DNA from: Escherichia coli
GTDB taxonomy: Bacteria; Pseudomonadota; Gammaproteobacteria; Enterobacterales; Enterobacteriaceae
DNA: 64,000 nucleotides
Strand: one strand, 5' to 3'
NCBI RefSeq assembly: GCF_024700885.2
Contig: NZ_CP117016.1
Of this stretch, positions 44,139 through 57,033 are shown piece by piece. Position 1 is the stretch's first letter, and every line of letters begins with the position of its first letter. A program made the position numbers and the translations under genes. Under the pieces are notes generated by a model. The model was not told the DNA's origin. It was given only the letters and a program-made list of their open reading frames with translations, and did not search any database.

Positions 44139-44239
44139 GTTCTTACGCCTCGGGCTGGCTACTTACCCCCTGACCACTGCTTGGTAACTCGAAGTATTGC
44201 CCGGCGTTCTGTGGGGCGGGGTGGGTTGGTATGTTGTTA

Positions 44240-44270
44240 AGGTAACAAGAGTTACCTTTCGAGTCAATAC
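44240..44270 (-). promoter_or_regulatory. putative PL/OL: -35 TTGACT with operator palindrome GGTAAC-N4-GTTACC
   Basis: On the minus strand TTGACT (44262-44267) followed by palindrome ggtaacaagagttacc (44241-44256); same half-site as the operators at the cI-cro junction. Confidence 0.45.
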
Positions 44271-44297
44271 AATGTTGCAAAAGGTACATTTGAGGGC

Positions 44298-44325
44298 ATA
44301 AAAAACCCGCAATGAATGCGGGTTC
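44298..44325 (-). terminator. terminator immediately downstream of the repressor gene
   Basis: On the minus strand, stem aacccgcattcattgcgggtt followed by TTTTTTAT. Confidence 0.65.
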
Positions 44326-44329
44326 TGAC

Positions 44330-45004
44330 TCAGTCTAAGTATTGATGTATTTGTGAAACTTTACCTTTAATGGTGTAACCACCATTCAGTTCGATGGGTT
44401 TGTAAAGCGGATTCAGTGACAACAGATAGATGTTTGGTCCGTCAATCGCAACTTTTTTTAGTGTTACGTTTGGCGTTCCTTCCAATTGGATTAAGATTAT
44501 TTTTCCCACCAGTTCTCTAATGTTACTTGAGCATGGTGTGATCAGCACGGTAGATCCGTCGGGGATGGTTGGGAGGCCGTTAGAGTTTGTCATCGCATCT
44601 CCCTCAACATGCAATAAAAAAGAGTTTTCAGCGGTTTTTGTCATGACATCAACCCAGTTCTTAATACCAGGAATCTTGGTTACTGGACAACTCATATCCC
44701 AATAACCAGCCTGTTCCCACGTTAAAACGGGCAACCGGGCGATGTTGTCACTAATGTAAGGGTACTGATTCAGACGCAGATCATCGGTTTTATCGTGACC
44801 GTCCTTTCCATAAAGAATCCATTCAGGAGATTTGGAAAGCAATTTTGACAGTAGATACAAATTCTCACCGTCAGGTTTTGAAGAGCCATTTTCCCATTTT
44901 GTTACGGATACACGAGATATGCCGATTGCTTTCGCAACCTGCTGTTGGGTTAATCCAACGTCTTTTCGACGATTCCGAATACGTTCGCTGATAGTGTTTT
45001 TCAT
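44330..45004 (-). CDS. cI: CI-like prophage repressor (HTH-XRE + S24 LexA-like peptidase domain)
   Basis: ORF 44330..45103; HTH (VGLTQQQVAKAIGISRVSVTKWENG) and C-terminal autocleavage domain; start placed at the Met at 45004 so operators stay intergenic (alternative Met at 45046). Confidence 0.75.
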   Translation of the reverse strand: MKNTISERIRNRRKDVGLTQQQVAKAIGISRVSVTKWENGSSKPDGENLYLLSKLLSKSPEWILYGKDGHDKTDDLRLNQYPYISDNIARLPVLTWEQAGYWDMSCPVTKIPGIKNWVDVMTKTAENSFLLHVEGDAMTNSNGLPTIPDGSTVLITPCSSNIRELVGKIILIQLEGTPNVTLKKVAIDGPNIYLLSLNPLYKPIELNGGYTIKGKVSQIHQYLD

Positions 45005-45068
45005 GTAACCAATGTTACTACCAAGTGATGTTGCTATGGTTGACATTGTTATGTAACTATTGTTACCC
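45005..45068. promoter_or_regulatory. putative OR/PR/PRM region with GTAAC-N4-GTTAC operators
   Basis: Palindromes gtaaccaatgttac (45005-45018) and gtaactattgttac (45053-45066); perfect -35 TTGACA at 45040-45045 facing the cro-like gene. Confidence 0.5.
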
Positions 45069-45095
45069 TTCTGCTCGAAATAACAGGAGAGTTTT

Positions 45096-45311
45096 ATGTT
45101 CAAAGATGATGTTCTGCGCTATTTCAAAAAAAAGCGACTAGTAGCTGAGGCTCTTGGAATTTCACATGTGGCTGTTGTGCGGTGGAAAGCAGTTATTCCC
45201 AAACTTCGCGCAATGGAACTGGATGAAATTACTAACGGTGAATTGAAATACAACCCAGAACTTTACAAGAAGCAGGATAGCACCTCGAACGAAGGAAAGA
45301 ATGATTCATGA
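45096..45311 (+). CDS. Cro-like HTH regulator
   Basis: 71-aa ORF with AGGAGA Shine-Dalgarno; HTH (KKRLVAEALGISHVAVVRWK); divergent from the repressor. Confidence 0.65.
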   Translation: MFKDDVLRYFKKKRLVAEALGISHVAVVRWKAVIPKLRAMELDEITNGELKYNPELYKKQDSTSNEGKNDS

Positions 45312-45733
45312 AAATCAAGCATGAACACATCCGCATGGCGATGAATGCCTGGGCGCATCCGGACGGCGAAAAAGTACCGGCTGCGAAAATTACCAAAGCG
45401 TATTTCGAGCTGGGAATGACGTTCCCGGAACTGTATGACGACAGCCATCCGGAAGCCCTGGCCCGTAATACCCAGAAAATTTTCCGTTGGCTGGATAAAG
45501 ACACCCCTGATGCTGTTGAAAAAATGCAGGCTCTGTTACCGGCGATCGAAAAGGCGATGCCGCCTTTGCTGGTGGCCCGTATGCGCAGCCACAGTTCTGA
45601 ATATTACCGTGAGATCGTCGAACGGAGGGATCGGCTGGTGAAGGATGTCGATGATTTTGTTGCGTCAGCGGTTGTTTTGTATGACCAGATGAATCGCGGC
45701 GGCCCGGCAGGGAATGCTGTGGTGATGCACTAA
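45308..45733 (+). CDS. hypothetical early protein at the cII position (possibly YdaT-like)
   Basis: 141-aa ORF translationally coupled to the cro-like gene; family assignment is from memory only. Confidence 0.4.
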   Translation: MKIKHEHIRMAMNAWAHPDGEKVPAAKITKAYFELGMTFPELYDDSHPEALARNTQKIFRWLDKDTPDAVEKMQALLPAIEKAMPPLLVARMRSHSSEYYREIVERRDRLVKDVDDFVASAVVLYDQMNRGGPAGNAVVMH

Positions 45734-45755
45734 AAGCACGGTGTTCGGGGGTTTT

Positions 45756-46718
45756 ATGAGCAGCAAGCTTCATGGTCTTGTCTGGGAAGGGTGCGCCTTC
45801 ACCGGCATGATCTTATCCAGGGTGGCGGTTATGGCCCGTCTTGCAGACTACAGCAATGACGAGGGCGTGTCATGGCCTGCCATTGAAACTATCCGGCGTC
45901 AGATCGGTGCAAGAAGTGAATCCACAGTGAAATCGGCTATTGCAGAACTGGCGAAAGAGGGCTGGCTGACGAAGGAAGAGCGTAAGGTCGGTGGGCGTAA
46001 TGTAAGCAATATCTATCGGCTTAATGTGGAAAAACTCGAAGCAGCTGCGGCGGCGGCGCGTGAGTCATATAAACCGAAAAGAAAAATTAGCCCGGCAAAA
46101 AATGACCCGTTAACAGTTGACCCGTCAAATATTGACCCCTCAACGGTTGACCCGTCAAATTTTGATGGATCAACTGTTGATAAAAAACTGCCGATTAGGG
46201 GGCCGATGATTGACCCCGATCCGTCAGTATTAAAACCTGATCCGTCAGATAAAAGATCTTCTTGTCCGGACGCTTCGCAACCGGACCCGCAGACGGCTGA
46301 ACAGGATTTTTTAACCCGACACCCTGACGCGGTTGTGTTCAGTGCGAAAAAACGCCAGTGGGGAAGTCAGGAAGATTTGGTGTGCGCACAGTGGATCTGG
46401 GGACGAATCGTGAGTCTTTACGAGCAGGCGGCCAGCTATGATGGCGAGATCACTAGACCGAAAGAACCCAACTGGACAGCATGGGCCAATGACGTTCGCA
46501 CAATGCGGATGCTGGATGGCAGAACTCACAGACAAATTTGTGAAATGTTTGGGCGTCTCCAGCGGGATTCGTTCTGGGTAAAAAACATCATGAGTCCGGC
46601 AAAACTCCGGGAAAAATGGGATGAACTGGTTATCCGCCTGGGGCGTTCGCCTGCGCAGCGTTGCGTGAATCACATTTCTGAACCGGACACTGAAATACCG
46701 CCGGGATTCAGGGGGTGA
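45756..46718 (+). CDS. replication initiator (phage O-like, N-terminal HTH)
   Basis: ORF 45741..46718; ATG at 45756; N-terminal HTH; contains internal iterons (next feature). Confidence 0.7.
   Translation: MSSKLHGLVWEGCAFTGMILSRVAVMARLADYSNDEGVSWPAIETIRRQIGARSESTVKSAIAELAKEGWLTKEERKVGGRNVSNIYRLNVEKLEAAAAAARESYKPKRKISPAKNDPLTVDPSNIDPSTVDPSNFDGSTVDKKLPIRGPMIDPDPSVLKPDPSDKRSSCPDASQPDPQTAEQDFLTRHPDAVVFSAKKRQWGSQEDLVCAQWIWGRIVSLYEQAASYDGEITRPKEPNWTAWANDVRTMRMLDGRTHRQICEMFGRLQRDSFWVKNIMSPAKLREKWDELVIRLGRSPAQRCVNHISEPDTEIPPGFRG
46100..46180 (+). repeat. candidate origin iterons inside the O-like gene
   Basis: Four ~18-bp direct repeats (ccgttaacagttgac / ccgtcaaatattgac / ccctcaacggttgac / ccgtcaaattttgat) followed by an A/T-rich stretch; encode the peptide repeat DPLTVDPSNIDPSTVDPSNFD. 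Confidence 0.65.
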
Positions 46719-46724
46719 CGTGTC

Positions 46725-47471
46725 ATGAAAAACATTGCGGCAGTTGGGGTTCTTGAACGTATTCGCAGACTTGCACCACAGGGGTCGGTTCCACCGTACC
46801 GGACGGTGGAGGAGTGGCGGGAATGGCAACTTGCTGAAGGACGAAAACGCAGCGAGGAGATTAACCGCCAGAATCGCCAGTTGCGGGTGGAAAAAATCCT
46901 GAATCGTTCGGGCATCCAGCCTCTGCACAGCAAATGCTCGTTTGCAAATTATCAGGTGCAGAACGACGGGCAAAAATACGCGCTGAGCCAGGCCAAATCC
47001 ATAGCTGACGAACTGATGACCGGGTGCACGAATTTTGTGTTCAGCGGTAAAACCGGCACCGGGAAAAATCACCTTGCAGCGGCGATGGGCAACCGGCTGA
47101 TGGTGAAGGGGCGCAGCGTGATTATCGTCACCGTGTCTGACGTCATGAGCGTGTTGCATGACAGCTACGACAACGGCAAATCCGGGGAAAAATTTTTACA
47201 GGAGCTTTGCGGGGTTGATTTGCTGGTCCTGGATGAAATAGGCGTTCAGCGGGAGACGAAAAACGAGCAGGTGGTATTGCACCAGATAATTGATCGCCGG
47301 ACAGCATCACTGTGCAGTGTCGGGATGTTAACAAACCTGAATCATGCCGCAATGAGTACGCTTCTTGGTGAGAGGATTATGGACCGCATGACCATGAACG
47401 GTGGTCGATGGGTGACGTTTAACTGGGATAGCTGGCGTCCAAATGTCAGCAATATGAGGGTTGTGAAGTAA
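46725..47471 (+). CDS. DnaC/IstB-like AAA+ helicase loader
   Basis: 248-aa ORF with Walker A (GKTGTGKNHLAAA) and Walker B (LLVLDEIG). Confidence 0.8.
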   Translation: MKNIAAVGVLERIRRLAPQGSVPPYRTVEEWREWQLAEGRKRSEEINRQNRQLRVEKILNRSGIQPLHSKCSFANYQVQNDGQKYALSQAKSIADELMTGCTNFVFSGKTGTGKNHLAAAMGNRLMVKGRSVIIVTVSDVMSVLHDSYDNGKSGEKFLQELCGVDLLVLDEIGVQRETKNEQVVLHQIIDRRTASLCSVGMLTNLNHAAMSTLLGERIMDRMTMNGGRWVTFNWDSWRPNVSNMRVVK

Positions 47472-47492
47472 TTTTGTCCGGAGGAAATTTTA

Positions 47493-48263
47493 ATGGAAAC
47501 CGTATCTGACGCACTGAAAGCACTGAAAAAAGCCTCTTCACATGTGGTGGCAGCTCGCCTTGGAATCAGTCGTGAAGAGGCTGTCAACGAGCTGTGGGAA
47601 CTCAAAAGAAATGGCGTCGTTGATAAAACTGGTCACACCTGGTTTCTGGCTGGCGAAGGTGAATCCCGGGTAACCGAAGAGCGGCCAGTAAAATCTGAAG
47701 CACAGGATATGCTGACCGGGGAGGTCGAACAAAAAGTTACCGCAGACATGATGATTGAGTTTATCGGTCAGGATGGGGCTAAAACGTGTGAGGAACTGGC
47801 GGGTAAGTTCGGTGTCAGTACTCGCAAGGTTGCTTCCACGCTGGCGGTGGTAACCGCAACGGGGCGGCTGGCACGCGTTAATCAGAACGGTAAATTTCGT
47901 TACTGCATGCCGGGCGATAATTTACCAGCAGAGCCGAAAGCCGCGCTGGTAACGGAAAGTGATGGTAAGGCCTTTCCTCAGCCAGCAGGTGCTGCGTTAC
48001 CAGTCCGGGAAGCCGCAACACAGGAAGAAATTAAAACAGAAACTGTGGCGGACATTGTGCAGCCGTTGCCATCGTTTACCGAAACGCAAGCAGATGAGCT
48101 GATTTTTCCGTCCCTTCGCAGGGCAAACCTGGCGCTGCGCAGGGCGAAAAGTGATGTTCAGAAGTGGGAGCGAGTCTGCGCCGCGCTGCGGGAGCTGAAC
48201 AAGCACCGGGATATTGTTCGACAGATTACTGATTCTTCCCGCCGTGTTGTATCGGAAAAGTGA
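47493..48263 (+). CDS. hypothetical phage protein
   Basis: 256-aa ORF with N-terminal winged-helix-like segment; nin-region position. Confidence 0.5.
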   Translation: METVSDALKALKKASSHVVAARLGISREEAVNELWELKRNGVVDKTGHTWFLAGEGESRVTEERPVKSEAQDMLTGEVEQKVTADMMIEFIGQDGAKTCEELAGKFGVSTRKVASTLAVVTATGRLARVNQNGKFRYCMPGDNLPAEPKAALVTESDGKAFPQPAGAALPVREAATQEEIKTETVADIVQPLPSFTETQADELIFPSLRRANLALRRAKSDVQKWERVCAALRELNKHRDIVRQITDSSRRVVSEK

Positions 48264-48278
48264 TTGCCGGAGGCGCTT

Positions 48279-48701
48279 ATGGCAAAAGTATTTACACAAG
48301 AAGAGCGGGAAAAAATTAAAGGGCAGGTTGTTGAACTTGTACGTCTGAGCGGTCGCGAGACGTTGCGGCAACTGGAAGCCAAGACAGGTGCGACAAGATA
48401 TCTGATGAGTGTTCTCGCCAGAGAGCTGGTTGCCAGTGGCGATGTATACAACTCTGTTTACGGGTTATTCCCGTCTGAACAGGCGCGTAAGGACTGGCAA
48501 AACGCCCGCAAAAAACTCTCAAGGGCAAATCTGAAGAAACCATCTGTGGTTGATCCTGACCTTATCTGGACATTACCCGACGGAGAAATACGCCGCTACG
48601 ACAGGCGTATGAACATAATCTGTCGCGAGTGCCGGAAGAGTGAAGTTATGCAGCGCATATTGTCGTTTTATCAGGGTGATGTTCGGTATTTATTGAAGTG
48701 A
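48279..48701 (+). CDS. hypothetical phage protein
   Basis: ORF 48264..48701; ATG at 48279 preceded by GGAGG; C-terminal CxxC (ICRECRK). Confidence 0.5.
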   Translation: MAKVFTQEEREKIKGQVVELVRLSGRETLRQLEAKTGATRYLMSVLARELVASGDVYNSVYGLFPSEQARKDWQNARKKLSRANLKKPSVVDPDLIWTLPDGEIRRYDRRMNIICRECRKSEVMQRILSFYQGDVRYLLK

Positions 48702-48868
48702 CGAGATTAAAGTGCATTAGTTCAGATGCAAATTGACATTTTGTGGCACAGGGTAGAGCTAGCGTGGTTGTCCGCTTTGTGCCAGAAGCGGACATAGCAG
48801 GTGCCAGATGCATTTGTTATTCTTCATTGAATTGAGCAGTATCCTTAACAGGAACTCTGAATACATAA

Positions 48869-49507
48869 ATGAAGATGAAAAACATGTCTGAAGTGTTGAC
48901 CCAAGAAAAGCTTATTTTTGTTGCCCAGAGACTAAATGCCCTCGCGCAGTCAGGCCTGACCTATTCAAAAGACGTCTTTGACAAGGAACGCTATGAAGCC
49001 TTGCGTGAAATTGCCGCTGGACTGCTGAGTTCGCAGTTTGATATTAGCCGCAATGATTTGTTTCATGTATCGGAAACGGGTTACGCGACGCCCAAAACAG
49101 ATGTGCGTGCGTTTATCCTGCGTAATAATCGTATTCTGATGGTGAAAGAGGCTGCAGATGGATTATGGAGTCTTCCTGGCGGATGGGCAGATGTTGGAGA
49201 TACACCTTCTGAAGCTGTGCGTCGAGAGGTCGAAGAAGAAACCGGATTAAAAGTCAGAGTGACTAAACTATTGGGAGTTTGGGATCGTAATCTTCACGGC
49301 CATCCGCCTTTACCCTGGCATGTTTACAAGCTGATTTTTCTCTGTGAAGAAGTAGGTGGCAGCCTGTCAATCAGCCATGAGTCACTCGATGCTGATTTTT
49401 TTGATGTCAACGACCTGCCTGAATTGTCGCTTTCAAGAATTGTGCCTGAGCAGATTGCTGTCAGCCTGAGAGTAGCGAAAGGTGATGAAAAAACATGGTT
49501 TGATTAA
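48869..49507 (+). CDS. NUDIX hydrolase with N-terminal extension
   Basis: 212-aa ORF with canonical Nudix box GGWADVGDTPSEAVRREVEEETGL (GX5EX7REUXEEXGU). Confidence 0.8.
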   Translation: MKMKNMSEVLTQEKLIFVAQRLNALAQSGLTYSKDVFDKERYEALREIAAGLLSSQFDISRNDLFHVSETGYATPKTDVRAFILRNNRILMVKEAADGLWSLPGGWADVGDTPSEAVRREVEEETGLKVRVTKLLGVWDRNLHGHPPLPWHVYKLIFLCEEVGGSLSISHESLDADFFDVNDLPELSLSRIVPEQIAVSLRVAKGDEKTWFD

Positions 49508-49530
49508 CTTTCTTCTGCAACCATTAAGGA

Positions 49531-50175
49531 ATGGCAATGATATTCAACGCTAAGGGTTTTTTATTCGATATGGACGGTACGCTGGTTGATTCAACAGCCG
49601 TAGTGGAAAGCGTCTGGAGAGATTTTTGTGCAGAATACGGTCTTGATACTCAGGCTGTGATTGCTTACGCACACGGGCGGCAAACGATTGATACACTGAC
49701 GCATTTTATTGGTGCAGGTGAGAAAACCAATAAAATCGCGGCCTCACTCGAAGAGGTTGAAATCAACACGACAGAAGGCGTTACTGAAGTAAAAGGGGCC
49801 GCTGCACTCTTATCAAAACTGCCACCGGATAGCTGGGCACTTGTTACTTCTGCAGGCAGAATGCTTGCCGAAAACAGGATGAAAGCGGCTAATCTCCCCT
49901 TACCCATAGTAATGGTGTGTGCAGAAGATGTAATGACGGGAAAACCAAGTCCCGAGGGTTACATCAAAGCAGCTTTGGCTTTGGGCCTTGAGCCTGGTGA
50001 ATGCGTGGTATTTGAGGATGCATCTGCGGGTATAAAAGCAGGGCTGGCAAGTGGAGCTTCGGTAATAGCTGTTCAGCCTGACGCTCTGGGATCATCTGAA
50101 GCCCATGCCGTCAGCGAGCTGTCTGACATTATGGTCAAGATTTCCGGAGAACGTTTCAATATCATCTGTGGTTAA
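49531..50175 (+). CDS. HAD-superfamily phosphatase
   Basis: 214-aa ORF with motif I FDMDGTLVDS and downstream HAD motifs; AAGGA Shine-Dalgarno. Confidence 0.8.
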   Translation: MAMIFNAKGFLFDMDGTLVDSTAVVESVWRDFCAEYGLDTQAVIAYAHGRQTIDTLTHFIGAGEKTNKIAASLEEVEINTTEGVTEVKGAAALLSKLPPDSWALVTSAGRMLAENRMKAANLPLPIVMVCAEDVMTGKPSPEGYIKAALALGLEPGECVVFEDASAGIKAGLASGASVIAVQPDALGSSEAHAVSELSDIMVKISGERFNIICG

Positions 50176-50438
50176 TCACGTTACACAATACGCATCAATG
50201 GACGCTGAGTAGTTCGCGAGTTTTAAACTTCCAACGTCCGCTTTTCGCTCAAAGCGGACTAGAAGGTTAGCTTGCGTCGGACTTGGCGTATTTAAAGAAG
50301 TGCTGGTGGTGACTGGTTGTTGTGTTCCATTTCTACAGAACAAAATCACAGAAACTATACCCAATAGTTGTATTGAATCACTGACGAGACAGCCTCATAT
50401 TTATCAGGACTGGTGTACGTCCAATACAGGAGGTTGTG

Positions 50439-50528
50439 GTGCTGGTTCTCAAATGTGCGCTGGCTATTGCTGCTGTAATGGCAATTTATTGCCTTGCTGT
50501 TGTTCTTATGGATCGCCTTTCTGATTGA
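50439..50528 (+). CDS. candidate small hydrophobic peptide (29 aa)
   Basis: AGGAGG (50428-50433) followed by GTG at 50439; MLVLKCALAIAAVMAIYCLAVVLMDRLSD; one predicted TM helix; not in the ORF track (below length cutoff). Confidence 0.25.
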   Translation: MLVLKCALAIAAVMAIYCLAVVLMDRLSD

Positions 50529-50739
50529 TTTCATATTGGCGAGGTGACGGGAGTTAAGTAGAATGGCTGCGGGTGCTTGAGGCTATCTGTCTCAGGCATG
50601 AACACCAAAGGCAGATAGAGAAAAGCCCCAGTTAACATTACGCGTCCTGCAAGACGCTTAACATTAATCTGAGGCCATATCTATGCTCTACACACGTAGG
50701 TTAGCCTCTTACGTGCCGAAAGGCAAGGAGAAGCAGGCT

Positions 50740-50895
50740 ATGAAGCAGCAAAAGGCGATGCTAATCGCCCTGATCGTCATCTGTTTAACCGTCATGGTGA
50801 CGGCACTGGTAACGAGGAAAGACCTCTGCGAGGTACGAATCCGAACCGGCCAGACGGAGGTCGCTGTCTTCACAGCTTACGAACCTGAGGAGTAA
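50740..50895 (+). CDS. hok: Hok/Gef-family type I toxin
   Basis: MKQQKAMLIALIVICLTVMVTALVTRKDLCEVRIRTGQTEVAVFTAYEPEE (51 aa) with AAGGAG Shine-Dalgarno; the in-frame upstream extension from 50683 may be a mok-like leader frame. Confidence 0.85.
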   Translation: MKQQKAMLIALIVICLTVMVTALVTRKDLCEVRIRTGQTEVAVFTAYEPEE

Positions 50896-50965
50896 GAGAC
50901 CCGGCGGGGGAGAAATCCCTCGCCACCGCTGATGTGTCAGGCATCCTCAACGCACCCGCACTTAA

Positions 50966-50990
50966 CCCGCTTCGGCGGGTTTTGTTTTTT
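50966..50990 (+). terminator. terminator downstream of hok
   Basis: Stem cccgc/gcggg with ttcg loop followed by a T-rich run. Confidence 0.65.
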
Positions 50991-51062
50991 CTGGTCGTTC
51001 TGGTTTACAATCCATCCGTCAGCCTGAACAACTGGCACCTGCTGCGCCAGCAGAGAAAACAG

Positions 51063-51341
51063 ATGGCGCACGATACCAAATTTTACAATTCGGATAACTC
51101 TGCCGCCCCTGCCAGCAGGCACGGGCGGCGTTCTCATGCATTCAAATCTGACTGGTATCAGCACGACCCCTGCACCGAAGAACAGGCTGAATGGCTCATT
51201 CAGTGTTACCGCAGGCGCGGATGCGAGGTTAAAAAAGCCCTTAGCCTCGACTACCGTCACTGGATAATCTCCGTCAGGCTCCCTTACTCAGAACGGCCAG
51301 CGCGTCCGTCCCGCACATTCCAGCAACGGATCTGGAGGTAA
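51063..51341 (+). CDS. hypothetical phage protein
   Basis: ORF 50934..51341; the Met at 51063 lies after the terminator; 92 aa. Confidence 0.4.
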   Translation: MAHDTKFYNSDNSAAPASRHGRRSHAFKSDWYQHDPCTEEQAEWLIQCYRRRGCEVKKALSLDYRHWIISVRLPYSERPARPSRTFQQRIWR

Positions 51342-51342
51342 T

Positions 51343-52401
51343 GTGCGGGTATTACTTCGACCTGTTCTGGTACCGGAACTCGGTCTGGTTATCGTTAAGC
51401 CAGGCCGTGAATCAATGTCAGCATTCCATAACGGCAGAATACTGGTGGAGCCGGAACCAAAAAGCATGCGTAATCTGCCGTCCGGGGTCGTTCCTGCCGC
51501 TCGCCAGCCGCTGGTGGAAGACAAAACATTGCTGCCGTTTTTCAGTAACGCACGGGTGATTCGTGCTGCTGGTGGTGCTGGTGCATTGTCTGACTGGCTG
51601 TTGCGCCATATTAAATCCTGCCAGTGGCCACACGGCGATTATCATCACAGCGAAACCGTCATTCACCGTTATGGTACCGGCGCAATGGTGTTGTGCTGGC
51701 ACTGCGACAACCAGCTGCGTGACCAGACATCCGAATCACTCGGGCAACTTGCTCATCAAAACCTGTCAGCATGGATGATTGACGTCATCGGTCACGCAAT
51801 AAGCGGTACGCAGGAGCGTGAATTATCTCTGGCTGAATTATCCTGGTGGGCGGTCCGCAATCAGGTGGCGGACGCGCTACCGGAAGCGGTATTACGTCGT
51901 TCGCTGGGGTTGCGTGCGGAAAAAATTCGCTCTGTGTACAGTGAAAGCGACATCATACCGGGAGAGCAGACCGCCACCAGCATACTGAAGCAGCGCACAA
52001 AAAATATTGCGTTACTGCCTCACGTCCACCAGCAACAGAACCCACCACAGGAAAAGACGGTGGTCAGCATTGCCGTTGATCCGGAGTCACCGGCTCAGTA
52101 TCTCCAGCGCCAGAAATCACAACGGGAAGAGATGCCTGTATACACGCGCTGGGTAAAAACGCAGAAATGCATGACGTGTGGCAATCAGGCAGATGATCCG
52201 CATCACATCATTGGTCATGGACTGGGAGGGATGGGAACAAAGGCTGATGATTTGTTTGTTATTCCGTTATGCCGTAAATGCCGTAACGAACTACATGCCG
52301 GAGTAAAAGATTTTGAAGAGAAACACGGCAGTCAGCTGTTGTTGCTGATTCGTTTTTTAATGCACGCGAGAAATTCGGGTGTTCTGAAGTGGAAAGCATA
52401 A
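51343..52401 (+). CDS. DUF968-family protein (YdfU-like) with C-terminal HNH-like Cys/His motif
   Basis: 352-aa ORF, GTG start with GGAGG; C-terminus KCMTCGNQADDPHHIIGHG...CRKCRNELH. Confidence 0.6.
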   Translation: MRVLLRPVLVPELGLVIVKPGRESMSAFHNGRILVEPEPKSMRNLPSGVVPAARQPLVEDKTLLPFFSNARVIRAAGGAGALSDWLLRHIKSCQWPHGDYHHSETVIHRYGTGAMVLCWHCDNQLRDQTSESLGQLAHQNLSAWMIDVIGHAISGTQERELSLAELSWWAVRNQVADALPEAVLRRSLGLRAEKIRSVYSESDIIPGEQTATSILKQRTKNIALLPHVHQQQNPPQEKTVVSIAVDPESPAQYLQRQKSQREEMPVYTRWVKTQKCMTCGNQADDPHHIIGHGLGGMGTKADDLFVIPLCRKCRNELHAGVKDFEEKHGSQLLLLIRFLMHARNSGVLKWKA

Positions 52402-52782
52402 ATGACCGAGCGCATAGAATTTGTTTTACCTTACCCGCCGACGGTGAACACTTACTGGCGACGCCGTGGCAGCACATATTTTATCTCGGAGGAGGGAAAG
52501 CGTTATCGCCGGGCTGTGGCGCTTATTGTTCGCCAGCAGCGGCTGAAATTAAGCCTGTCCGGAAGGCTGGCGATAAAGGTGATTGCAGAGCCACCGGATA
52601 AGCGTCGTCGCGACCTGGACAATATCCTGAAAGCACCGCTGGATGCGCTGACGCATGCGGGAGTGTTAATGGACGATGAGCAGTTTGATGAAATCAATAT
52701 CGTTCGTGGTCAGCCAGTATCTGGTGGACGTCTGGGGGTGAAGATTTACCCCATAATGCATGAAGAGCAGGTCAAAAAATGA
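52402..52782 (+). CDS. rusA: Holliday junction resolvase RusA
   Basis: 126-aa ORF with the RusA-like pattern (LPYPPTVNTYWRRRG...RRRDLDN...). Confidence 0.8.
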   Translation: MTERIEFVLPYPPTVNTYWRRRGSTYFISEEGKRYRRAVALIVRQQRLKLSLSGRLAIKVIAEPPDKRRRDLDNILKAPLDALTHAGVLMDDEQFDEINIVRGQPVSGGRLGVKIYPIMHEEQVKK

Positions 52783-53600
52783 AACTGGAAGATTTACCGA
52801 AATACTACTCCCCAAAATCCCCTGGCCTGACCGATGCATCGGCCTCAACGTCAAAAGATGCGCTGAGTATCACTGATGTGATGGCCGCGCAGGGCATGAC
52901 ACAGAATCGGGCTGAGATGGGGTTTTCTGCGTTCCTGGGGAAAATGGGCATCAGTATGAATGACAGGGCGCGGGCAACAGAATTACTGGCAGATTATGCA
53001 CTCAGTCGGTGCGATCGTGTGGCGGCGTTGAGAAAACTTCCGGCAGAAATAAAACCGGTAGTGATGCGCATTATGGCTTCGTACGCTTTTGAGGATTATG
53101 CCCGCAGCGCAGCGAGTAAAAAGCAGTGCCCCTGTTGCCGAGGGGAAAAATTTATTGAAGGCGAAGTTTTTACAAACAAGGTTCAGTATCCGGATGGCAA
53201 GCCGCCAGTATGGGCAAAGTGTACGAAAGGTGTGTATCCGTCTTACTGGGAAGAATGGAAAAAAATTCGGGAGGTGGTGAAAGTTTCTTGTCCTGAATGT
53301 AAAGGGAAGGGGGAGATTTCCACTGCCTGTAAAGACTGCCGTGGGCGTGGTGTTGCCATTCATCGTGAAGAGTCGGTAAAACGTGGTATGCCTGTTATCA
53401 GAGACTGCCAGCGTTGTGGTGGTCGTGGCTGTGAAAGACTACCATCAACGGAGGCATTTAATGCCATACGCAAAGTGACGAGTGCTATCACGCTTGATAC
53501 GTGGAAAAAATCAGTGAAACGCTTTTACGATACGTTGGTGGTTCGGTTTGACATTGAAGAGGCATGGGCGGAGCGGCAGTTAAAGAGGGTAACGCGATAG
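52779..53600 (+). CDS. putative late-gene antiterminator Q (large, multi-CxxC type)
   Basis: 273-aa ORF with several CxxC pairs, immediately upstream of a PR'/tR'-like promoter-terminator pair. Confidence 0.55.
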   Translation: MKLEDLPKYYSPKSPGLTDASASTSKDALSITDVMAAQGMTQNRAEMGFSAFLGKMGISMNDRARATELLADYALSRCDRVAALRKLPAEIKPVVMRIMASYAFEDYARSAASKKQCPCCRGEKFIEGEVFTNKVQYPDGKPPVWAKCTKGVYPSYWEEWKKIREVVKVSCPECKGKGEISTACKDCRGRGVAIHREESVKRGMPVIRDCQRCGGRGCERLPSTEAFNAIRKVTSAITLDTWKKSVKRFYDTLVVRFDIEEAWAERQLKRVTR

Positions 53601-53605
53601 TGTTG

Positions 53606-53634
53606 TTGATTTTTCCCGAATCTGTGGTAAATTT
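53606..53634 (+). promoter_or_regulatory. putative late promoter PR'
   Basis: TTGATT (53606-53611), 16-bp spacer, TAAATT; located between Q and the tR'-like terminator. Confidence 0.45.
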
Positions 53635-53681
53635 GCTCTAACGATGGGCGTTTTATGCCTGACGTTAGAAGATTTTTTACA

Positions 53682-53705
53682 CCCCGCCGCCTGGCGGGTT
53701 TTTTA
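53682..53705 (+). terminator. tR'-like terminator downstream of PR'
   Basis: Stem ccccgcc/ggcggg followed by TTTTTTAT. Confidence 0.7.
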
Positions 53706-53826
53706 TGACTGAAATCGCGTCAGTACAGTAAACGCGCTGGTGGCGGTGAATACCTGTCTTTCAGCTTGCTGGCTTTTTCGACAAGAGTTATTGGTGTGTC
53801 ACGTTAACCGGAAAAGGGAAAAAGAC

Positions 53827-54024
53827 ATGCTAAAACAGCAGGATATGACAGAAACCGCCAGAGTGGTGTTTAATGAATTAAGCGTTACCGAACCGGCGAC
53901 AGTCGGGGAGATAGCGCAGAATACTTACCTTTCACGCGAACGCTGCCAGTTAATACTGACCCAGCTGGTTATGGCGGGTCTGGCAGACTATCAGTTCGGT
54001 TGTTACAGACGCCTTCAGTCCTGA
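53827..54024 (+). CDS. small winged-helix protein (possibly FaeA/PapI-like)
   Basis: ORF 53740..54024; Met at 53827 gives 65 aa with an HTH-like segment (ATVGEIAQNTYLSRERCQLILTQL). Confidence 0.4.
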   Translation: MLKQQDMTETARVVFNELSVTEPATVGEIAQNTYLSRERCQLILTQLVMAGLADYQFGCYRRLQS

Positions 54025-54035
54025 AGGCTTTTTTA
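54011..54035 (+). terminator. rho-independent terminator
   Basis: Stem gccttca/tgaaggc with gtcc loop followed by TTTTTT. Confidence 0.65.
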
Positions 54036-54174
54036 TTTGTGGTAAATGGGCGGCTGGTGGGTGTTAGGGGCACCCACCAGCCATCTGCTCATGCGTTGGG
54101 TTCACAAGCAAACCTCAGGCCCACTGCTTTGCGCAAAAGCAGAATGAGCCTATCAGAGACAGGCTTAATGATCC

Positions 54175-55224
54175 ATGCTTAATACTGTAAAAATATCCAG
54201 TTGTGAGTTAATCAACGCCGACTGCCTGGAATTTATCCGGTCGTTACCCGAAAATTCTGTTGACCTGATAGTCACGGACCCGCCGTACTTTAAAGTGAAG
54301 CCTGAGGGCTGGGATAACCAGTGGAAGGGCGACGATGATTACCTGAAGTGGCTGGACCAGTGTCTGGCGCAGTTCTGGCGGGTGCTGAAACCTGCCGGAA
54401 GTCTTTACCTGTTCTGTGGTCATCGCCTGGCATCTGATATCGAAATCATGATGCGTGAACGCTTCAGTGTGCTGAACCATATTATCTGGGCGAAGCCGTC
54501 CGGACGCTGGAACGGATGCAACAAGGAAAGCCTGCGGGCGTATTTCCCCGCCACAGAGCGCATTCTGTTCGCGGAACATTATCAGGGGCCGTATCGTCCG
54601 AAAGATGCCGGGTATGCGGCGAAGGGCAGTGCACTGAAACAGCATGTGATGGCCCCGCTGATTTCTTACTTTCGTGATGCGCGCGCGGCCCTGGGGATAA
54701 CGGCAAAACAGATTGCAGATGCCACAGGAAAGAAAAACATGGTGTCGCACTGGTTCAGTGCCAGTCAGTGGCAGCTACCGAATGAAAGCGATTATCTGAA
54801 ATTACAGGCGCTGTTTGCCCGGGTGGCAGAAGAGAAGCATCGGCGTGGTGAACTGGAAAAGCTCCACCACCAGCTGGTGGATACGTATACCTCACTGAAC
54901 CGGCAGTATGCGGAGCTGCTGAGTGAATATAAACATCTGCGGCGGTATTTTGGCGTGACGGTGCAGGTGCCGTATACCGATGTGTGGACGCATAAACCGG
55001 TGCAGTTCTATCCCGGGAAACATCTGTGCGAAAAACCGGCAGAAATGCTGCAGCAGATAATCAGCGCAAGCAGTCGTCCGGGTGACCTGGTTGCAGATTT
55101 TTTCATGGGGTCGGGTTCAACGGTAAAAGCGGCGATGGCACTGGGGCGTCGTGCGATTGGCGTTGAACTGGAGACCGGACGTTTTGAGCAGACAGTCAGG
55201 GAAGTTCAGGATTTAATCGTTTGA
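54175..55224 (+). CDS. orphan DNA N6-adenine/N4-cytosine methyltransferase (DPPY motif)
   Basis: 349-aa ORF with catalytic IVTDPPYF near the N-terminus and AdoMet-binding FFMGSGST near the C-terminus; no adjacent restriction endonuclease ORF. Confidence 0.8.
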   Translation: MLNTVKISSCELINADCLEFIRSLPENSVDLIVTDPPYFKVKPEGWDNQWKGDDDYLKWLDQCLAQFWRVLKPAGSLYLFCGHRLASDIEIMMRERFSVLNHIIWAKPSGRWNGCNKESLRAYFPATERILFAEHYQGPYRPKDAGYAAKGSALKQHVMAPLISYFRDARAALGITAKQIADATGKKNMVSHWFSASQWQLPNESDYLKLQALFARVAEEKHRRGELEKLHHQLVDTYTSLNRQYAELLSEYKHLRRYFGVTVQVPYTDVWTHKPVQFYPGKHLCEKPAEMLQQIISASSRPGDLVADFFMGSGSTVKAAMALGRRAIGVELETGRFEQTVREVQDLIV

Positions 55225-55273
55225 AACGGATGAGATTGCAGAATTAATTACGCACCATTATTATTCTGCTTCC

Positions 55274-55349
55274 GGCCCTTTAGCTCAGTGGTGAGAGCGA
55301 GCGACTCATAATCGCCAGGTCGCTGGTTCAAATCCAGCAAGGGCCACCA
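55274..55349 (+). tRNA. tRNA-Ile (anticodon CAU, ileZ-like) or tRNA-Met
   Basis: 76 nt; perfect 7-bp acceptor stem (GGCCCTT/AAGGGCC), D and T arms, anticodon loop CTCATAA, 3' CCA. Confidence 0.85.
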
Positions 55350-55449
55350 TCACAAACCGCCATTAGCTTATCAGGAAGAGCAGACGACACGATAACAGGG
55401 TTGTTGGTGCGGGGGCGGGTCCCCGATGGCGGTCCATTATCGGTATTCA

Positions 55450-55526
55450 GCGTTGTTAGCTCAGCCGGACAGAGCAATTGCCTTCTAAGCAATCGGTCAC
55501 TGGTTCGAATCCAGTACAGCGCGCCA
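55450..55526 (+). tRNA. tRNA-Arg (anticodon UCU, argN/argO-like)
   Basis: 77 nt; acceptor stem GCGTTGT/ACAGCGC, anticodon loop CTTCTAA, T loop TTCGAAT, 3' CCA. Confidence 0.85.
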
Positions 55527-55633
55527 TATTCATTCTTCCAGATTCCTTTCGGCAGAGCCTTATACTGAAATATACCTGGCTCAGGATATTGTTGAAAATA
55601 TTATATGTTTGTCAAAAATAAAAGTTCTGTTAA

Positions 55634-55990
55634 GTGTTGATTGAGTGTTTGTTATACGGTCTAATGGTTTTTTCAGCATTAAATATTTATCATTCATATG
55701 GTGTGGGTAGAGTGAATATTGATGAGGCGTCGGGGTGTTTCATCCTTAGGCAGCGTATTGATATAGTCAATGCAGAACGAGCAAAGGCCTTCAGCCGTTT
55801 GACAGTTTTGTTCTGTACTCCTGATCGTCTTTCGGGAAGAGACGTTATTATTCTGAATAGTGATGCTATACAGAGGGTTTGCGATGAGTTCATGGTGGCT
55901 AATTCAGAATTATTTGCTCTTGTTCAGGAGTACAACAGAATAGCCAGGACCTGTGGTATGGATGAACTTCGGATTACTCATCTGGGGTAG
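55634..55990 (+). CDS. hypothetical cargo protein in the AT-rich slot downstream of the phage tRNAs
   Basis: 118-aa ORF (GTG start; internal ATG alternatives); no recognisable motif. Confidence 0.4.
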   Translation: MLIECLLYGLMVFSALNIYHSYGVGRVNIDEASGCFILRQRIDIVNAERAKAFSRLTVLFCTPDRLSGRDVIILNSDAIQRVCDEFMVANSELFALVQEYNRIARTCGMDELRITHLG

Positions 55991-56437
55991 ATACATATCT
56001 GGATTATCACCGGTTACGGTAAAAAGTGATTGCTTACTGTTTTTGTGAATGGCATTGCAGCAGCCGGATAATGTCAGTGCTGGCTGACGGTGTGCTGGTG
56101 GCGGGTGTGGTGGTTGCTGCTTTCCCGTTGCTGAAAAAGAAAACGCCAGACTGTTAGCCGGGTATCAGTTAGCGGGAGAAATTTTTAAATACTTCACAAT
56201 TCAGGCGGTTGACTGTTGTCTGGTTTGCGGGGAGTTTGTTAAAAGAAACTGGCATGGTGAATCCCCCTGTGCGGAGGGGCAATCAGCGAGTAGGTATATG
56301 GGATAATCGCGGATTCAGGTGCTGGTACTGAATTCACCGGGAGGCACCCGGCACCATGCAATGGCACATAGCGCCACTCTCCAGCCCCTCTCCGGAGGGG
56401 CTGTTTATATTGATTTTGTCAGATGTGAGTAAACTCC

Positions 56438-56773
56438 TTATGGACTTTGTTGTTTTAGCCCATAAGGACATATTTGCAGAGTGCAACGGTTATTAAAGCA
56501 TTCATTCAATACGTTATCTGTATTTGTAGGGCATTCCTGGCTGTTTTTGATTAAATTCCAGAATGTTTTATTGAATGGTACTACGTTGTAAATGGTTACA
56601 GGCAGCACTTTGTTATTGAGCATGATGCCTGTGTGAGTCAGTGTAAATATACTTTCAGGAGGTAAGAAAGCATCCGATTGATACCAGATTATTAATTTTA
56701 TTTTACTCCATATGACTGAAAAAGATATTCCGCATGATGGCTGGATAACTGTATCAATCACAATCCACTTCAT
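56438..56773 (-). CDS. hypothetical cargo protein (Cys-containing C-terminus)
   Basis: 111-aa ORF on the minus strand with AGGAAA Shine-Dalgarno; AT-rich context. Confidence 0.4.
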
Positions 56774-57033
56774 TTAGTTTCCTTGTTTATGCCTTGCTGG
56801 TGATGTTCTGAAAAGTATAAATGATATTTTTGATTGTAAACCATAGAGCAGAATTATTTTTCTGATGTTGTTTATTGTTTATTTAAATGCAGGGTGGTTT
56901 ATATCTCGTCTTGTAGTTTATCCATGCATATCTGCTTGATGATGAGGTTTTTAATTAAGGTATGGTTTTGTGTTTTTTCTGTATTACATGTCAGGTATTT
57001 TAAAGAATCATTTTTCAGATGGTGGAAAGAACC

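Follow-up and report, generated by a model that had tools for sequence, protein, structure and literature searches.

The DNA analyzed here, referred to as the window, is a stretch of 64,000 nucleotides of Escherichia coli (RefSeq assembly GCF_024700885.2, contig NZ_CP117016.1). Positions 44176 to 57000 of the window matched the E. coli MLI114 chromosome with 100% identity. The PGAP gene order in that genome starts with a LexA-family repressor, Cro/CI and YdaT, leads through the replication genes, DUF1627 and DUF977 to a pair of cargo genes for NUDIX and HAD hydrolases (window positions 48869-50175), and then runs from hokD through a hypothetical protein, a DUF968 (ydfU-like) protein and RusA to the antiterminator Q. 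Judged by this sequence, the surrounding DNA is the early-right arm of a lambdoid E. coli prophage. The gap between the HAD gene and hokD measures 564 bases, and the PGAP annotation of MLI114 places no feature in it. We consider it likely that two neighboring and separable modules lie between the replication genes and Q, one a hok/mok/sok locus and the other a gene for a 29-aa membrane protein. The features of the first module are as follows.

50536..50564, plus strand: promoter of the hok mRNA, TTGGCG (50536-50541), 17 nt, TAGAAT (50559-50564), 9/12 in the promoter scan
50571..50990, plus strand: full-length hok mRNA, from a presumed +1 at about 50571 to the terminator
50571-50745, plus strand: hok leader, matched by Rfam RF01794
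50571..50582, plus strand: tac element GGGTGCTTGAGG at the mRNA 5' end, pairing with 50945-50957 in the predicted MFE and centroid folds
50671-50674, plus strand: Shine-Dalgarno (SD) sequence of mok, GAGG, 8 nt upstream of the ATG at 50683
50683..50895, plus strand: mok-like frame of 70 codons, in frame with hok and ending at the same stop
50725-50730, plus strand: SD sequence of hok, AAGGAG
50740..50895, plus strand: hok toxin gene, ATG to stop, 51 aa
50945..50957, plus strand: fbi element CCTCAACGCACCC, complementary to tac with one bulged base, just upstream of the terminator
50964..50991, plus strand: intrinsic terminator of the hok mRNA, AACCCGC-TTCG-GCGGGTT (50964-50981) followed by a T-run
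50726->50698, minus strand: sok-like promoter, -35 TTGCCT (50726->50721), 17 nt, -10 TAACCT (50703->50698)
50691->50617 (about), minus strand: predicted Sok-like RNA of about 70-75 nt, with inferred ends

The sequence supports the assignment of positions 50571-50990 as a complete and intact hok/mok/sok type I toxin-antitoxin locus of the HokD/HokW lineage. A hok/sok-like module had been proposed at this place in an initial annotation made from the sequence alone, and the toxin domain, the leader covariance model, the mok frame, the tac/fbi pair, the terminator and a conserved putative antisense promoter with its hairpin all agreed with that proposal. The Hok peptide matched the Pfam model HOK_GEF (PF01848) over model positions 1-42 of 42 with an E value of 4.3e-23. 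The coordinates of the toxin gene and its strong SD sequence had been read correctly. It also matched PHROG 251, "MokW-like host killing" (1.8e-32), and an NCBIfam Hok-family subfamily model (4.6e-13), the latter at 48.8 bits, which is below the curated cutoff of 73. In the identical MLI114 genome, PGAP names the gene hokD and its product HokD. Compared with the commonest HokD peptide among the loci, 50 of the 51 residues were identical, the sole difference being I19M.

The mok-like frame, likewise foreseen in the initial annotation, was confirmed as an in-frame upstream extension of hok by 19 codons which stays open to the hok stop and is preceded by its own SD sequence. The mok ATG and the open 19-codon extension were retained in roughly 85% of 107 hok copies, and the first five residues differed among copies, reading MLYTR, MLDTC or MNGKS. 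A variable N terminus on a frame that is kept open fits a frame whose translation outweighs its product.

Between the promoter assigned to the hok mRNA and the start of the Rfam match to the leader lie 6 nt, and this promoter is also kept in the O157 locus and in the other loci. The leader itself was recognized by RF01794 over model positions 1-157 of 157 with a score of 114.7 bits (gathering score 59, E = 6e-27); this model is oriented in the hok-mRNA sense and finishes at the hok AUG. For the mRNA from 50571 to 50990, the predicted fold had a free energy of -170.8 kcal/mol (z = -6.6 versus shuffles) and brought the 5' end into pairing with the 3' end. In both the MFE and the centroid folds, the tac RNA GGGUGCUUGAGG (50571-82) was paired with the fbi sequence CCUCAA(C)GCACCC (50945-57). 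Of 100 hok loci examined, 94 had an identical tac element and 6 did not match the search motif, and in fbi only the bulged base varied (C or T); because the two elements are otherwise without variation, their pairing draws no support from covariation. The terminator noted downstream of hok in the initial annotation was confirmed as a hairpin at 50964-50981 plus a T-run. A match to the IsrK sRNA (RF01394) at 50904-50985 was rejected, as it scored 27.2 bits against a gathering score of 50 and consisted mostly of two hairpins of the hok 3' untranslated region.

The antisense RNA had been expected on the minus strand around 50640-50740, with a promoter that the first reading could not pinpoint. 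The strand and the region of that expectation stood; the range itself had to be refined, as it comprises the promoter plus only part of the RNA, which is now predicted to extend from about 50691 to 50617. The promoter was placed at 50726->50698, inside the mok frame and overlapping the hok SD sequence, where a sok promoter is expected. It was assigned by its position relative to mok and hok, since it matches the consensus at 8/12 positions, has a weak -10 hexamer (TAACCT) and was not listed by the promoter scan. Across loci the two hexamers were well conserved, with TTGCCT found in 91/100 and TAACCT in 89/100. The predicted RNA would begin with an unpaired 5' tail that covers the mok start and SD sequence, continue into a long hairpin and end in the U-run UUUUCUCU. 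The stretch 50695->50620 gave a predicted fold of -30.2 kcal/mol (z = -4.4), and by its position the RNA is complementary to the mok SD sequence and ATG. On this reading a Sok-like RNA would be transcribed and this copy of hok would be active.

The archetype of such loci, hok/sok of plasmid R1 (RF01794, PF01848), has the architecture that is predicted here, with a weak hok promoter, 5' tac locked to 3' fbi, hok translation coupled to mok, a short Sok RNA antisense to the ribosome-binding site of mok, and a membrane toxin of the Hok/Gef type. It differs in that mok here is an in-frame N-terminal extension of hok, and in its plasmid setting as opposed to the prophage found here; the prophage setting makes classical post-segregational plasmid stabilization an unlikely role. 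The hok genes are reported to be enriched in prophages (10.1101/2025.08.07.668861). Closer to the present case is hokW-sokW of the Stx2 phage Sp5 of O157:H7 Sakai, which was shown experimentally to be a toxin and RNA antitoxin pair, the antitoxin RNA requiring RNase III and Hfq (PMC8621323). HokW is 44% identical to the R1 Hok and was made after mitomycin C treatment in a RecA-dependent manner, and the locus promotes Sp5 release (PMC8621323). The toxin described here belongs to the same 51-aa lineage as hokW-sokW and the lambdoid HokD proteins, as its match to the "MokW-like" PHROG 251 also indicates. A homologous prophage locus of O157:H7, which may be that of Sp5 itself, was near-identical in the leader, tac, the mok frame and the sok promoter region and had the same neighbors as in the window (hypothetical protein/DUF968/RusA/Q). 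It differed in its upstream cargo, an alpha/beta hydrolase gene in place of the NUDIX and HAD pair, and in the small open reading frame (ORF), which is complete in the window and of which the O157:H7 locus has no more than the final 30 nt or so. Since hokD is annotated in the identical RefSeq genome and a hokW-sokW homolog has been characterized, the hok/sok part is ordinary, already known and not a discovery, and it matters solely as a correct annotation, that of an intact HokD/HokW-type module.

By analogy with these systems, the locus may be expected to work as follows. A stable hok mRNA would begin at about 50571 and stop at the 50964-81 terminator, and pairing of the 5' tac with the 3' fbi would hold the full-length mRNA translationally silent. 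Trimming of the 3' end would then make hok translatable, solely through coupling to the overlapping mok frame. The Sok-like RNA (about 50691->50617) would mask the mok SD sequence and start, thereby blocking translation of mok and hence of hok, and the duplex of Sok with the hok mRNA would be cleaved. Upon decay of Sok, the 51-aa Hok would enter the inner membrane and depolarize the cell. In the prophage, Hok probably helps to lyse the cell and to release phage once induction has occurred, which is what has been reported of hokW-sokW of Sp5, and the module described here would by that analogy be expected to contribute to lysis.

The second module lies in the unannotated gap upstream of hok, where the following features were assigned.

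50373..50401, plus strand: putative sigma-70 promoter of the small ORF, -35 TTGAAT (50373-50378), 17-nt spacer, -10 CATATT (50396-50401)
50428..50433, plus strand: SD sequence of the small ORF, AGGAGG, with a 5-nt spacer to the GTG
50439..50528, plus strand: small ORF with a GTG start and the stop TGA (50526-50528), 29 aa, (f)M-LVLKCALAIAAVMAIYCLAVVLMDRLSD
50300-50524: mechanical ORF for a 74-aa Cys-rich frame over the same DNA

A hydrophobic ORF of 29 aa with a single transmembrane segment, led by AGGAGG, had been reported at this place in the initial annotation. Its coordinates and SD sequence proved right, and the substitution pattern over 130 loci identified it as a real frame. The mechanical ORF listing starts it at the adjacent GTG 50436 (30 aa), and only GTG 50439 was conserved. 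With an in-frame stop 23 codons upstream, the ORF cannot be longer in this window; its own stop codon lies 7 nt before the -35 hexamer of hok. The presence of such a frame says little by itself, the listed 2.3 kb (49500-51800) being overlapped by 39 ORFs of 20 aa or more; the pattern of conservation is the nonrandom part. The peptide has a mean Kyte-Doolittle hydrophobicity of 1.8, rising to 2.7 in its best 19-residue window, CALAIAAVMAIYCLAVVLM. A single transmembrane helix is predicted; Lys5 precedes it and a short charged tail, DRLSD, follows it. The predicted topology is N-in/C-out, which would place Lys5 inside and the acidic DRLSD tail outside.

The conservation of the small ORF was followed in eight aligned E. 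coli and phage loci and 120 further loci from IMG/VR. It was intact in 128 of 130 related loci, in a set drawn by a DNA pattern inside the ORF which fixes codons 12-25 and biases the sample toward intact copies. The GTG start was found in 130/131 loci and the AGGAGG in 104/131, most of the others having GGGAGG, AGGGGG or AGGAGA. Compared with strain A21, the most divergent lineage, there were 9 synonymous and 4 conservative nonsynonymous changes, corresponding to a pS of 0.40, a pN of 0.065 and a pN/pS of 0.16; over four comparisons with A21 the ratio ranged from 0.12 to 0.20. Outside the part fixed by the pattern, 12 of the 21 variable columns were third codon positions. When the same DNA was read in the alternative frames, there were 10-12 amino acid changes or, in the third frame, stops. 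All relatives were at least 82% identical, and so shallow a family provides few independent substitutions. The pattern indicates purifying selection on the 29-aa frame, and the ORF is very probably a real gene whose product is presumably translated.

The region preceding the ORF exhibited a corresponding pattern. Between two lineages the leader differed at about 30% of its positions, and the 17-nt promoter spacer was variable. Within this diverged sequence there were three conserved islands, GTATTGAA (-35), CATATTTATCAG (-10 onward) and ACAGGAG (SD), and such islands are the footprint that a promoter together with a ribosome-binding site would be expected to leave. The putative promoter matches the consensus at 8/12 positions, which is under the threshold of the scan. 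Its -10 hexamer, CATATT, was found in 125/131 loci and its -35 hexamer, as TTGAAT or TTGAAG, in 104/131; the other 27/131 loci had other sequence at the -35 position, suggesting that the ORF may be able to do without a promoter of its own. The ORF occurred without hok in 14 loci, where a minus-strand terminator and a DUF1971 gene were found downstream instead. The small ORF is an independent module that lies outside the hok regulatory circuit.

The distribution of the small ORF was narrow by every search. No family match was obtained against NCBIfam, PHROGs, PADLOC or Pfam, and none against Rfam. In an exhaustive phmmer comparison with 1.84 billion representatives, the 29-aa peptide matched only 9 clusters, none of them less than 86% identical to it, and thus no distant relatives among these representatives that might hint at a function. 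A tblastn search of 50,697 phage records found the ORF in four E. coli lambdoid phages only, the isolated temperate phages Evi, Tritos, mEp460_ev081 and HannyBb, none of which carries a plus-strand annotation there. With a degenerate pattern, 100,044 GTDB species representatives gave matches in E. albertii and in two MAG contigs only, two of these three matches having hok downstream; the two MAG contigs are probably mis-binned coliphage DNA. As far as these sequence collections reach, the small ORF is confined to Escherichia prophages. Within E. coli itself the sequence is common, at least 80% of the region 50200-50575 being present in 1,638 of 5,426 complete genomes (roughly 30%). The ORF was not called by PGAP in any genome examined, GenBank entries hold only occasional calls as a "hypothetical" or "membrane protein," and the peptide string had no match in the papers searched. 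It is the only new element of the region; about 30% of complete E. coli genomes and isolated temperate coliphages have it, and PGAP leaves it unannotated. For work on small proteins it offers a well-defined object that can be studied cheaply, and it exemplifies the phage-borne micro-genes which annotation pipelines systematically miss.

The 29-aa product is probably a small prophage-encoded protein that would span the inner membrane once. Its gene may be expressed in lysogens from its own weak sigma-70 promoter and, after induction, additionally by read-through of the early-right transcript. There is no terminator between the small ORF and hok, and its transcript therefore probably reads into the hok locus. 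It is conceivable, though doubtful, that the ORF founds a new family of small membrane proteins of Escherichia prophages with an active role, either as an orphan toxin or as a modulator of Hok or of a host membrane protein in lysogeny or induction. Under that reading, read-through from the small ORF may yield a 5'-extended hok mRNA with altered tac/fbi control, and a functional gene would be missing from the RefSeq annotation in roughly 30% of complete E. coli genomes.

Next to hok, a short and very hydrophobic peptide with a charged tail could also be a second type I toxin in the style of Ibs, Ldr, Fst or TisB, accompanied by an unrecognized antisense or divergent small RNA, in which case the region would hold two tandem type I toxin-antitoxin systems. 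The 29-aa product resembles Ibs, Ldr, TisB and ShoB, small inner-membrane proteins and type I toxins, in its length of less than 50 aa, its one hydrophobic helix and its short polar tail, and it forms a mobile module with its own promoter that adjoins another type I toxin. It differs from them in that no family-level sequence relationship, antisense partner or structured leader was detected, and the PADLOC, Pfam and NCBIfam toxin models gave no match. The promoter scan found no minus-strand promoter-like site between 50100 and 51100, which is a weak negative since the same consensus scan misses the accepted sok promoter. The predicted mRNA from 50405 to 50570 showed no excess of structure over shuffles (z = -0.2, with 77/200 shuffles folding at least as well), and the SD sequence was not sequestered in the predicted fold. 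No direct repeat was found that would give a divergent trans-antitoxin its complementarity, and upstream of 50366 the sequence was unrelated in the A21 and HCM25C lineages, so that no divergent partner travels with the small ORF. Synonymous sites were free to vary (pS 0.40), which speaks against the presence of a structured RNA over the same DNA. As all these signs against a partner RNA come from in silico analysis, they carry little weight. We regard a second toxin as unlikely and, because no antisense RNA or structured leader was detected, prefer to read the 29-aa product as a plain small membrane protein.

Further candidates were considered and rejected. Two minus-strand promoters found by hand, TTAACT-16-TATGAA (~50530-50557) and TTGAGA-18-TGTATT (~50424-50453), had poor hexamers and were unconserved in the A21 lineage. 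A likeness of the 29-aa peptide to the N-terminal helix of Hok, which by eye amounted to about 5 identities in 25 residues, was judged a generic transmembrane likeness and not homology. The Pas sRNAs have been reported with "Sok" in their flanks, PasA and PasC being near holin and lysozyme genes; as an explanation of 50176-50570 they were set aside, being merely within 10 kb of sok as judged from the published description of synteny.

Alternatively, the ORF might be untranslated and its DNA kept because it regulates the hok promoter from upstream or belongs to a longer noncoding leader or small RNA, which we hold to be quite unlikely. In favor of this reading, the ORF has never been called by PGAP and ends 7 nt before the hok -35 hexamer, and in O157:H7 loci roughly the final 30 nt are all that is left of it, joined to the hok promoter. 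The substitutions are nevertheless codon periodic (pN/pS about 0.16), and the frame, the GTG start and the strong SD sequence are kept in nearly all copies. Also against this reading are the 14 loci in which the module has no hok downstream and the lack of an Rfam match or of excess structure in the searches described above.

For the hok locus itself, the alternative is a decayed and inactive copy like hokD (relF) of the K-12 Qin prophage, whose gene name PGAP assigns to the toxin here. We take K-12 hokD to adjoin rem and ydfU, and rem/ydfU neighbors were present among the related loci fetched. The K-12 gene presumably has no leader, mok or sok of its own, since relBE sits upstream, and the locus described here differs from that truncated copy in its complete regulatory apparatus. 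The substitution I19M relative to the commonest peptide might be read as a sign of decay, and a bioRxiv survey (10.1101/2025.08.07.668861) cites earlier work in which chromosomal hok loci could not bring about post-segregational killing. Against this, the hok ORF is intact; the promoter, tac, mok with its SD sequence, the predicted sok promoter and hairpin, fbi and the terminator are all present and conserved; and the near-identical hokW-sokW is functional (PMC8621323). Decay of this copy is therefore very improbable, and the intact module is retained.

That the real gene over 50300-50524 should be the 74-aa Cys-rich frame, the longest ORF on that DNA and the one which the ORF track reports there, has next to no chance of being correct and is refuted by comparison. 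This frame exists mechanically and is not conserved: the PapRG, S1-IND and mEp460 lineages have lost 14 nt at one place and 1 nt at another, so that the stretch between the two deletions is out of frame, and in the A21 and HCM25C lineages unrelated sequence stands in place of the 5' two-thirds. In the part shared by the lineages there were 12 amino acid changes in 30 residues, versus 5 in 31 for the 29-aa frame, which the substitutions across the 130 loci mark as the real one.

The insertion junction for alternative cargo upstream of the small ORF, a 29-aa reading frame predicted to encode a single-TM protein, was marked by the following element.

Window 50239-50262: perfect 9-bp hairpin, GTCCGCTTT-TCGCTC-AAAGCGGAC.

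The cargo at this position comprised the NUDIX and HAD hydrolase genes, DUF4145, or a hypothetical gene. An alignment of eight loci showed that the approximately 100 bp past the hairpin (50263-50365) were kept in six of the eight lineages, with a 14-bp indel. No T-run was observed beside the hairpin on either strand. The element may mark the edge of a moron or act as a Rho-dependent terminator. The 61-base stretch past the stop codon of the HAD hydrolase (50200-50260) takes in the first part of the hairpin and exhibited 96.7% identity to a site shared by the P2-like phages Peduovirus P24C9, 10W and 11W. This match suggests that the NUDIX and HAD cargo, or its boundary, was swapped between P2-like and lambdoid prophages.

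At the E. coli O157:H7 locus, which carries hok and a remnant of the small ORF, PGAP annotated one further feature.

O157:H7 locus (L130) 2405-2488: truncated pseudogene fragment, ITNNQIPVITTGILAQLHGAEVNSIKQN...

This fragment adjoins, on the upstream side, the small ORF remnant and the hok promoter, a position which shows the way in which this junction was rearranged in O157 prophages. By eye only, the fragment resembles an antirepressor N-terminus.

In loci without hok, namely the E. coli A21 locus (1661-1720) and 13 IMG/VR loci similar to it, an A-run and hairpin were found no more than 15 nt past the small ORF stop. On the minus strand, the two elements make up an intrinsic terminator of a convergent DUF1971 gene. 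The mosaic joint of the hok-less loci lies inside the hexamer that serves as the hok -35 element in the window.

For hok itself, two features were considered.

Window 50878-50884: GCTTACGAAC, containing hok codon 47 (TAC).
Window 50904-50985: hok 3' UTR, with a GC hairpin, fbi and terminator.

The encoded Hok has Cys at residue 30 and Tyr at residue 47. The TTACGAA context around the Tyr47 codon resembles the anticodon loop edited by TadA. Given Tyr47, Cys30 and this context, editing at codon 47 may be needed for full toxicity of this Hok copy.

The Rfam isrK model matched the 3' UTR over its full length at a sub-threshold score (27.2 bits versus 50, E = 0.002). IsrK is a Gifsy-1-borne Salmonella sRNA. 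The resemblance could be due to chance, or it could hint that the 3' end of an mRNA of the hok type gave rise to IsrK.

A mechanical ORF listing placed a 135-aa GTG ORF at 50934-51341. It begins within the hok 3' UTR and terminator. Because PGAP calls just 51063-51341 (92 aa, hypothetical), the 135-aa version is probably an artefact of that listing.
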